From positions 256,001 through 320,000 of the forward strand of contig CAWALK010000012.1 of the NCBI GenBank assembly GCA_963782915.1: a stretch of DNA of 64,000 bases. The letters are read 5' to 3'. Made by a program: the position numbers and the translations under genes. This document shows positions 38,138 to 39,669 of this stretch, in pieces (the first letter of the stretch is position 1; each line of letters opens with the position of its first letter). The notes under the pieces are model-generated. The model saw nothing but the letters and a program-made list of their open reading frames with translations. It searched no databases and had not been told where the DNA came from. The DNA is from an uncultured archaeon (GTDB taxonomy: Archaea > Thermoproteota > Bathyarchaeia > Bathyarchaeales > Bathycorpusculaceae).

Positions 38138-38302
38138 AGTTTGATGCTCCCTAAAACTCCGTTTTGCGGAATGCCCATCCACTAGGAAGTAGCATGATTT
38201 AATCTTTCTAAGGCATTAATTAAAGATTTCGCCAACTCTGATACAGTCATGTGGAGACGTGGGCTAAAGGTTTTTAGGAAAGTTGATGATTTTTAGTGCG
38301 CA

Positions 38303-38369
38303 TTGGCGGGTGAGTGGTTCTCCTACCCGTTCCGCCAAAGAAAATAAAACCCGGGAGTAGGGAGAAATG
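38303..38369 (+). ncRNA. Candidate preQ1-I-like riboswitch in the queT leader
   Basis: Stems TTGGCGG/CCGCCAA and AGTGG/CCGTT; loop TTCTCCTAC; A-rich tail; loop complementary to the GGAG/GGAGA SD before ATG 38367. Confidence 0.55.
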
Positions 38370-38923
38370 CATTTGAAAATAGGATCAAAAAACTTAGCTT
38401 TAATTGCAATGTATGCTGCGTTGTATGCAGCGCTTAGTTATCGGTTTAGGACTTCTTGTCTTATGGGCCGCTTCAAGTTCGAGTGGCAGATTCAATGGTT
38501 GCTGCGGTGCCGATTTTTGGCTTAGCAGGCGTTTTAGGCCACACACTTGGAGTGTTCATCGCTAATCTTGTTCTCCACTGCAGGGTTACTTGACTTGTTA
38601 AACACAATACCCTCCTTTGTCATGGCTTACTTGTGTATATTATACTTACAACGAAAACAAGCAATGACTACACAGTAATCGTAACCTGCATCGCTTATTC
38701 AGCGGTTCTGGGTATAACAGTCGGCTGGATGCTATCTTACCTCTATGGGTACCCATTGCTTGTAACCATCGGCTATGTAATCATTGGAAACATTATTGCC
38801 AGCGTACTCATTGGATGGCCACTGTTTAAGGTCCTAAAAAAAGCGGGGATTCAGAGATGGTTTGAGAATGGACGGGGCAAATATGCTCATCCTCCCCAAA
38901 GTCAAAAGGAAAGTGAACAATGA
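38367..38923 (+). CDS. queT: QueT-family queuosine-precursor transporter (frameshifted; N-terminus absent from ORF track)
   Basis: Manual translation MHLKIGSKNLALIAMYAALYAAL, then SYGPLQVRVADS...GVFIANL, matches the QueT pattern; directly upstream of queC. Confidence 0.8.
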
Positions 38924-39579
38924 TGAATCAGGCAAAGAAATGTGTAATCGTTCTTAGCGGCGGACCAGACTCAGCCACCGTCGCTTATTGGGCAAAAGCA
39001 GAAGGCTACCAAATCTACCCCATCACATTCAACTACGGACAAATCGCCGTCAAAGAAACCCAATCCGCCCAGCAAATCGCAGAGAAACTCGGCACCACCA
39101 CCAAAATCATCGACCTCTCAAACCTCAAAACTATCTTCAGCGGCGCCACCTCACTCGTCAACCGAGACATCCCCCTAACAGCCGAATTCAGCAGCCCCAT
39201 CATCGTACCCTTCCGCAACGCCATCTTCCTCTCAGCCGCCGTCGCATACGCAGTCACCGTAGGCGCAACCCACATCTTCTATGGCGCACAAGGCAGCGAT
39301 GAACCCAACTACCCCGATTGCAGGCGCGAATTCTATGAAGCCTTCGAAAAAGCTGCACGACTAGGAACAGAGCAGGAAATAACTATTGAAGCACCCTTTA
39401 ACGGATACAAAAAATCGGAATTGCTCAAGGAAGCCGTTAAGTTGGGAGTGCCGCTTGAGCTCACATGGTCCTGCTACCGTGATGGCGAAAAGCATTGCGG
39501 AAAATGCGAGTCCTGTGTTAACCGCAAAAAAGCGTTTGCTGAAGCAGACTTAGCTGACCCCACAACGTATGAAACTTAA
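38920..39579 (+). CDS. queC: 7-cyano-7-deazaguanine (preQ0) synthase
   Basis: SGGPDS, YGQ, VPFRN, YPDCR and TWSCY...HCG.C.SC motifs. Confidence 0.96.
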   Translation: MMNQAKKCVIVLSGGPDSATVAYWAKAEGYQIYPITFNYGQIAVKETQSAQQIAEKLGTTTKIIDLSNLKTIFSGATSLVNRDIPLTAEFSSPIIVPFRNAIFLSAAVAYAVTVGATHIFYGAQGSDEPNYPDCRREFYEAFEKAARLGTEQEITIEAPFNGYKKSELLKEAVKLGVPLELTWSCYRDGEKHCGKCESCVNRKKAFAEADLADPTTYET

Positions 39580-39669
39580 CTCTTATTTTTCAGTAAATTA
39601 AATATCAAGCTCCAAACCTTTGGTAGCATATGGCATTGAGTAAGCTCAAGACTGAGCCTAGCAATAATA

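Follow-up and report, generated by a model that had tools for sequence, protein, structure and literature searches.

A covarying pseudoknot leader upstream of queT in Bathyarchaeia and other Thermoproteota is a candidate 7-deazaguanine riboswitch

We analysed a 64,000-nucleotide (nt) stretch of DNA from an uncultured archaeon of the Bathyarchaeia (assembly GCA_963782915.1, contig CAWALK010000012.1; hereafter, the window), in which a short leader precedes the 7-deazaguanine genes queT and queC. Comparison with other genomes makes us highly confident that this leader is a real and widespread cis-regulatory RNA pseudoknot masking the Shine–Dalgarno (SD) sequence of 7-deazaguanine genes in archaea. 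Positions 38303–38366 are this genome's own copy of a 62–70-nt leader predicted to head queT mRNAs (queC-queE mRNAs in one lineage) in Bathyarchaeia and other Thermoproteota. We think it probable that the leader acts as a translational OFF riboswitch, either a new class or a very diverged variant, with preQ0 or a related 7-deazaguanine as candidate ligand.

Inspection of the window sequence located all features of the initial annotation, which had proposed an archaeal preQ0/preQ1 riboswitch controlling a queT-queC operon; these include the loop TTCTCCTAC at 38318–38326, GGGAG-TA-GGGAGAA at 38353–38366 and the start codon ATG at 38367. Three alignments are used below: A1, with 113 sequences retrieved by a search pattern; A2, derived likewise; and A4, an unbiased set from 28 genomes retrieved with a covariance model. 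For A1 and A2, exact duplicates were removed first (107 and 105 references kept of 110), and locus L142, which contains N, was excluded from the alignments. In the window, the parts of the element are as follows.

38303–38309, + strand: UUGGCGG, 5′ strand of the outer stem (P1), pairing with 38332–38338; its core GGCGS/SCGCC shows compensatory changes
38310–38314, + strand: GUGAG, a nearly invariant loop or junction segment, fixed by the search pattern in A1 and A2
38315–38318, + strand: UGGU, a variable segment of differing length (0–9 nt elsewhere) and sequence
38319–38324, + strand: anti-SD UCUCCU, 5′ strand of the pseudoknot, complementary to 38360–38365 and covarying with the SD
38325–38331, + strand: ACCCGUU, nearly invariant; CCCGUU is invariant in A1 and A2, where the pattern fixed CCCGUU
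38332–38338, + strand: CCGCCAA, 3′ strand of P1, pairing with 38303–38309, with covariation as for the 5′ strand
38339–38349, + strand: A-rich linker AGAAAAUAAAA (AGAAAATAAAAC if counted as 38339–38350), of variable length with a (nearly) invariant AUAAA core
38350–38354, + strand: conserved CCCGG (conservation seen in A4)
38360–38365, + strand: SD sequence GGGAGA, 3′ strand of the pseudoknot, ending 1 nt before the ATG at 38367

Across genomes, the general layout is a 5–7-bp stem, GGCGS/SCGCC, that closes a 20–27-nt loop containing an anti-SD, CCUCCC (in the window, UCUCCU), which pairs with the entire SD GGGAGG (in the window, GGGAGA) to give an H-type pseudoknot. Some 30 unpaired bases hardly vary, and near-invariance marks the segments GUGAG, ACCCGUU and AUAAAMCCCGG.

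Folded singly, the window leader is no more stable than chance (minimum free energy −21.0 kcal/mol versus −19.1 ± 2.98 kcal/mol for shuffled sequences; z = −0.64; 49 of 200 shuffles fold equally well), so the case for the element rests on comparison with other genomes. The minimum-free-energy fold pairs GCAUU (38300–38304) with AAUGC (38365–38369) across the start codon; by eye this pairing is not kept in other leaders of the genus, and we discarded it.

Both helices covary in the comparison. Four of the seven P1 pairs in A1 were changed on both sides, with 98.1% of cells paired; a core pair is G-C in 92 of 113 sequences and C-G in 21, and the closing pair was seen as G-C, G·U, A-U, C-G and U-A. 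The pseudoknot had five of seven pairs changed on both sides and 94.5% of cells paired. For the whole structure, 96.3% of cells were paired (92.1% when shuffled) and 71 cells were changed on both sides (14.5 when shuffled), values that none of 500 shuffles reached; controls with the strands slid out of register paired just 45–57% of cells. As the A1 pattern fixes several loop bases, we repeated the count on A4, finding P1 100% paired and, again, five of seven pseudoknot pairs changed on both sides.

At least ten distinct loop/SD combinations occur, including CCUCCC/GGGAGG, UCUCCU/GGGAGA, CCUCCU/AGGAGG, GCUCCC/GGGAGC, CCACC/GGUGG (twice), UUCACC/GGUGAA, UUCCG/CGGAA, CACCUCC/GGAGGUG and UUGCCUCC/GGGGGCAA. 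Duplexes between each loop and its own SD averaged −13.0 kcal/mol, compared with −11.74 ± 0.16 kcal/mol for swapped partners (0 of 300 permutations as low). That G·U pairs are tolerated in both helices argues for RNA pairing and not a DNA palindrome, and one-nucleotide insertions and deletions in loop and linker exclude a coding reading. The outer stem TTGGCGG/CCGCCAA and the pairing of loop UCUCC with the SD, drawn in the initial annotation as an H-type pseudoknot hiding the ribosome-binding site, are therefore conserved with covariation in orthologous leaders, and the A-rich strand placed after the stem recurs as an AUAAA-type core following SCGCC in all aligned sequences. P1 length and linker length were not correlated (Spearman rho 0.15, p = 0.12, n = 110), giving no support for a groove-spanning length rule.

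In A4, where the unpaired segments were free to vary, GUGAG is replaced by GUAGG (one sequence), GUGGG (two) or GUGGU (two), together 5 of 28, and ACCCGUU has the variants AACCGUU, AUCCGUU and CCGAU. The CCC of CCCGG is present in all 28 sequences; its GG is swapped for A-rich sequence in 2 of them. The UGG of the variable segment is missing in about 13 of the 113 A1 sequences.

A pattern scan for the conserved unpaired blocks, run on one genome per species (185,579 species), gave at least 118 loci, among them 110 with the full element and 8 bacterial chance matches without P1; viral contigs gave 0 pattern matches. The conserved structured leader predicted at the 5′ end of a 7-deazaguanine operon thus recurs immediately ahead of queT in 110 or more archaeal species, for the most part Bathyarchaeia but also Methanomethylicia, Nitrososphaerota and Caldarchaeum. 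By database label, the 110 listed comprise about 95 Bathyarchaeota/Bathyarchaeia/Bathycorpusculum, 5 Methanomethylicia/Methanosuratincola, 2 Nitrososphaerota, 1 Caldarchaeum, 2 ‘Thermoproteota’, 1 ‘uncultured archaeon’ and 4 bacteria or Methanocella with the full element. The last four (L073, L080, L082 and L127, labelled Methylomirabilota, Krumholzibacteriaceae, Methanocella and Acidoferrum) bear the full archaeal element together with queT and are probably mis-binned archaeal contigs. Two loci, L031 and L104, are differing copies of the element on two contigs of one metagenome-assembled genome record set, possibly a second copy or a mixed bin.

We also applied a covariance model (R1; threshold 26 bits) to the window's own genome and to 151 evenly drawn genomes of the phylum. 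It gave one strong match in the own genome (69.6 bits) and matches of at least 26 bits in 28 of the 151, in single copy per genome; all 28 are followed on the same strand, 20–240 nt downstream, by a QueT match. Two further matches of about 21 bits, not adjoining queT, were treated as false. At L188 (G084:C3:86090-86450), a queT without the full element is preceded, at a distance of about 130 nt, by a hairpin GGCGG-GUUGAGCU-CCGCC and then UUUACCCC, perhaps a remnant or variant.

The genes downstream tie the element to one pathway. Among the 110 listed pattern loci, 104 downstream genes form one QueT-like cluster, and the six products outside it are four that by eye look to have been picked in the wrong frame (L043, L076, L088 and L129), one QueC (L108) and one gene cut by the locus end (L128). 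Pfam QueT scored above its cut-off in seven of eight sampled first genes, the exception being L037; this locus and four others from Bathyarchaeota (L055, L062, L063 and L092) have the element before a membrane protein of 230–250 amino acids with no Pfam match and a weak BLAST tie to QueT. By a crude operon call, queC comes next in at least 52 of 136 loci. In Caldarchaeum (L108, 988–2138) the element stands before QueC (121.8 bits) and a QueE-like gene of the radical-SAM type, with no queT between, which links it to the 7-deazaguanine pathway and not to one transporter alone. The association with queT and queC that had been noted for the window is borne out, and extends to queE.

Taken with this gene context, the element has traits general to riboswitches: its structure in the 5′ leader is conserved and covaries, it keeps to the genes of a single pathway, and its expression platform overlaps the candidate aptamer (the SD at 38360–38365 in a helix with the loop at 38319–38324). 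It also combines a pseudoknot with many highly conserved nucleotides, which is the criterion of Weinberg et al. 2017.

The same invariant blocks could instead be the contacts of an RNA-binding protein that represses translation. They are long, unpaired and without an assignable RNA partner; ACCCG occurs twice, at 38325–38329 and 38349–38353, about 20 nt apart; and the stability of the pseudoknot is such that no ligand would be needed. We nevertheless hold such an operator to be unlikely, for no candidate protein gene is linked to the element and operon content varies beyond queT and queC (no co-occurrence search with protein families was made), and an element that, in different classes, goes with both the transport and the biosynthesis genes of one pathway bears the usual signature of a metabolite sensor.

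A third reading is a ligand-independent structure that masks the SD and sets a low, fixed or temperature-dependent rate of translation. A covariation-backed, SD-masking helix of 6–8 bp in hosts that, by database label, range from soils to hot springs is in keeping with it, but some 30 nearly invariant unpaired nucleotides are far beyond what SD masking needs, and the element is single in each genome and found only at 7-deazaguanine genes. We rate this reading as very unlikely.

The part of the fold that is least clear is the interior of the loop. The initial annotation had stacked an inner stem on P1, formed by AGTGG (38313–38317) and CCGTT (38327–38331) through the pairs A-U, G·U, U·G, G-C and G-C. 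This stem, AGUGG/CCGUU, can form in most sequences; it is missing where UGG is absent (about 13 of 113), shows 0 compensatory changes in the 113 A1 sequences and has a predicted mean pair probability of about 0.01, and we regard it as unproven. A4 holds five A-U to G·U changes at its lowest pair and one double change from G·U to U-A (L177), on account of which the inner stem cannot be dismissed.

The isolated hairpin prefers other pairings. GUGGN/CCYAC, which occupies half of the anti-SD, reaches a probability of more than 0.5 in 40 of 60 distinct sequences, and GCGGGUG/CACCCGU is preferred instead in 14 of the 60; on these folding predictions, both are candidate ligand-free states. The GUGGN/CCYAC register has one pair with a single both-sided change and is 89.4% paired, and the changes in the GUG/YAC register are all one-sided. 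By eye, L172 and L173 are compatible with a fourth register (GUG/CGU, with AGU bulged out), which is broken in L023 and L170. We rejected a CCCGG–UGGGG pairing as a general feature after inspection by eye, UGG being absent in about 13 sequences and GG in L176 and L177.

No Rfam 15 family reached its gathering score anywhere in the 64-kb window, and the window leader alone gave five weak, unrelated matches at E ≤ 10, with no preQ1 class among them. For three representatives (the window leader, the short-type L033 and L108 from Caldarchaeum), no preQ1 family of classes I–III (RF00522, RF01054 and RF02680) matched at E ≤ 10, so the proposed PreQ1 model check came back empty. K-turn and tRNA-like readings were likewise without Rfam support at this threshold in the three representatives and were dropped.

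Class I preQ1 riboswitches are about 34 nt in size, unlike the archaeal element of about 62–70 nt, which has no match to their covariance model, has other conserved loop sequences and sits in archaeal hosts. As described in section 4 of PMC11625349, class I forms an H-type pseudoknot with an A-rich L3, has UC or AC before the 3′ strand of P1 (the C being the specificity base) and places anti-SD–SD pairs in a P2 of 3–4 steps. With this class (RF00522) the archaeal element shares a small H-type pseudoknot placed in the 5′ mRNA leader of genes for 7-deazaguanines, an A-rich stretch on the 3′ side of the stem and a loop anti-SD that pairs with the SD for translational control. It differs in that GUU, not UC or AC, precedes the 3′ strand of its supported P1, that the linker to the SD is about 17–25 nt and includes the conserved CCCGG, and that its P2 of 6–8 bp buries the whole SD.

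An alternative, the version of the initial annotation, is that the element is a true, diverged class I member with an extended P1: AGUGG/CCGUU would be the canonical P1, the specificity cytosine would lie in the ‘AC’ before CCGUU, and the outer stem would be an addition. Besides the shared architecture, the ‘AC’ is found in 111 of the 113 pattern-derived sequences, the changes at the lowest inner pair (5 of 28) and the L177 double change fit, and L023 and L170 (GUAGG) fit the inner-stem register. Yet ‘AC’ stands only before this unproven stem and is AA, AU, missing or U- in 7 of the 28 unbiased sequences; the A-rich strand follows the outer and not the inner stem, a different topology; and about 13 of 113 sequences lack the upper inner pairs. 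The failed RF00522 match, the low inner-stem probability and the longer P2 also speak against membership, and the ‘UU’ atop P1 is restricted to the window's own clade. The GGUUCU core that had been likened to the Bacillus subtilis queC aptamer lies within the segment whose length and sequence vary. Membership of class I thus seems improbable to us; because both the model match and the UC/AC rule for the supported stem fail, we do not file the element in a preQ1 family. By analogy it would work like a preQ1 riboswitch, without being a demonstrable member of class I, II or III.

Class II preQ1 riboswitches have an embedded extra hairpin and are, to our knowledge, confined to Lactobacillales; the archaeal element shows no sign of such a hairpin and no match to the class II model. 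What it shares with class II (RF01054), according to PMC5372724, is a place upstream of queT-type transporter genes and an SD buried in a pseudoknot. The archaeal TPP and fluoride riboswitches are described in PMC5473149 as cis-acting metabolite or ion sensors in archaeal mRNAs, the kind of role proposed here; unlike those classes, which are shared with bacteria, the full element occurs only in archaeal-type contigs among the matches listed. The literature searched held neither an archaeal preQ0/preQ1 riboswitch nor a description of the motif, with supplements (among them the Weinberg et al. 2017 motif lists, possibly of bearing on novelty) and many subscription papers lying outside its reach.

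One further reading makes the leader a substrate or decoy of the archaeosine tRNA-guanine transglycosylase, a guanine in GAGUGG being exchanged for preQ0 so that mRNA structure is coupled to preQ0 supply. AGUGG and GUUC may resemble D-loop and T-loop motifs. With no tRNA model match at E ≤ 10 in the three representatives, UGG dispensable in about 13 of 113 sequences and no direct evidence for it, we consider this extremely improbable.

Returning to the riboswitch, its most novel form, to which we give a little under an even chance, would be an independently evolved, Archaea-only class that senses preQ0 and switches by register slippage: GUGAGUGG(G) would either hold the 3′ half of the anti-SD (ON) or free the anti-SD for the SD-burying pseudoknot around the ligand (OFF). 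In the riboswitch reading that we hold as probable, the invariant segments would build a pocket for a free 7-deazaguanine base, most likely preQ0, because archaea insert preQ0 into tRNA. Binding would lock the pseudoknot and put the SD out of reach of the small ribosomal subunit, so that translation of queT, and of queC, whose start overlaps the queT stop, would be switched off in feedback repression. In the ligand-free state, GUGG(G) would probably hold the 3′ half of the anti-SD, or P1 would be replaced by GCGGGUG/CACCCGU, either of which would free the SD.

Several points weigh against this interpretation. The A1/A2 search pattern fixes several ‘invariant’ positions by construction, and the shuffle controls overstate significance and independence because the sequences are kin. 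The pseudoknot helix, at 6–8 GC-rich base pairs and a mean of −13 kcal/mol, might form without ligand. The ligand-free alternatives are thermodynamic predictions only, and GCGGGUG/CACCCGU is broken in the 21 of 113 sequences with GGCGC. Counting three inner registers in A1 and A4 yielded no decisive covariation and no partner for GUGAG, ACCCGUU or CCCGG. QueT is present in 74 of the 151 sampled genomes, 46 of which have no detectable element, and 20 upstream regions of element-less queT, viewed by eye, have short leaders instead.

If an Archaea-only preQ0 class is real, it would be the first metabolite riboswitch class known solely from archaea. The element itself is compact and covariation-backed, has a predictable ligand and is present in more than 100 uncultured species of Bathyarchaeia, Methanomethylicia and relatives. 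Confirmation would mean that archaea evolved, or kept, metabolite-sensing RNAs of their own; it would give a first handle on regulation of archaeosine precursor supply, mark queT-queC as a salvage module and provide a small ligand-responsive part for archaeal genetics. The hypothesis is directly testable, as the RNA is about 65 nt long and candidate ligands are obtainable.

Around the element, the window holds a putative promoter and the two genes.

38271–38278, + strand: TATA-like box TTTTTAGG, the putative promoter, coinciding with a conserved A/T peak and aligned in 21 orthologous leaders
38367–38923, + strand: queT, frame-broken, spread over three frames; a six-frame QueT match of 52.9 bits has one TGA and one TAG inside
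38920–39579, + strand: queC, intact (Pfam QueC, E = 3.4e-63, 213.4 bits), its start overlapping the queT stop (ATGA)

The TATA-like TTTTTAG reported at 38271 lies in a conserved A/T box: over 107 distinct upstream regions, A/T content peaks at 83–91% at −34 to −29 from the stem core, and 21 leaders from queT-queC loci align with strong conservation, this box included. Given the position of the box and the usual archaeal spacing between TATA box and start, transcription is predicted to begin near 38298–38302, some 5 nt ahead of P1. TTTTTAG recurs at 38290–38296, 19 nt past the first (38271–38277) and off the conserved box.

In this assembly queC is intact and queT is broken. Compared with the intact orthologue L007, the window's queT has about five single-base insertions, within 38430–38670. 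In contigs from other public metagenomes that are 90–99% similar, one base is missing at each of 38434, 38451/52 and 38566, so the breaks are assembly errors or very recent strain-specific changes, probably the former; the leader of these contigs is identical except for one A>C at 38339. Upstream of queC, queT is one open frame of 157–253 codons in 18 of 21 loci and broken in the own genome, L005 and L027. Outside the window, the sole TGT match of the genome (G000:C3:3865-4840) is likewise in two adjacent frames (187 and 76.9 bits), which may be a further frameshift or assembly error in this pathway.

Of 41 related genomes, 23 have a QueC orthologue, with 63–86% identity in the loci of 20 relatives. 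In the own genome, which has TGT, neither a PTPS/QueD match nor a convincing QueE was found: a search for QueE with the partial L108 protein retrieved nothing, and TIGR03365 found generic radical-SAM matches of at most 29.4 bits against a cut-off of 206.1; at 93.5% completeness of the genome, this absence of QueE is not proven. Tentatively, queT-queC would be a salvage module here. Two weak QueT-like genes (36.5 and 33.4 bits) stand side by side at G000:C15:309669-310870, outside the window and with no copy of the element. Within the window, a run of five T at 39586–39590, 7 nt past the queC stop, may be an archaeal oligo-T terminator that closes the operon.

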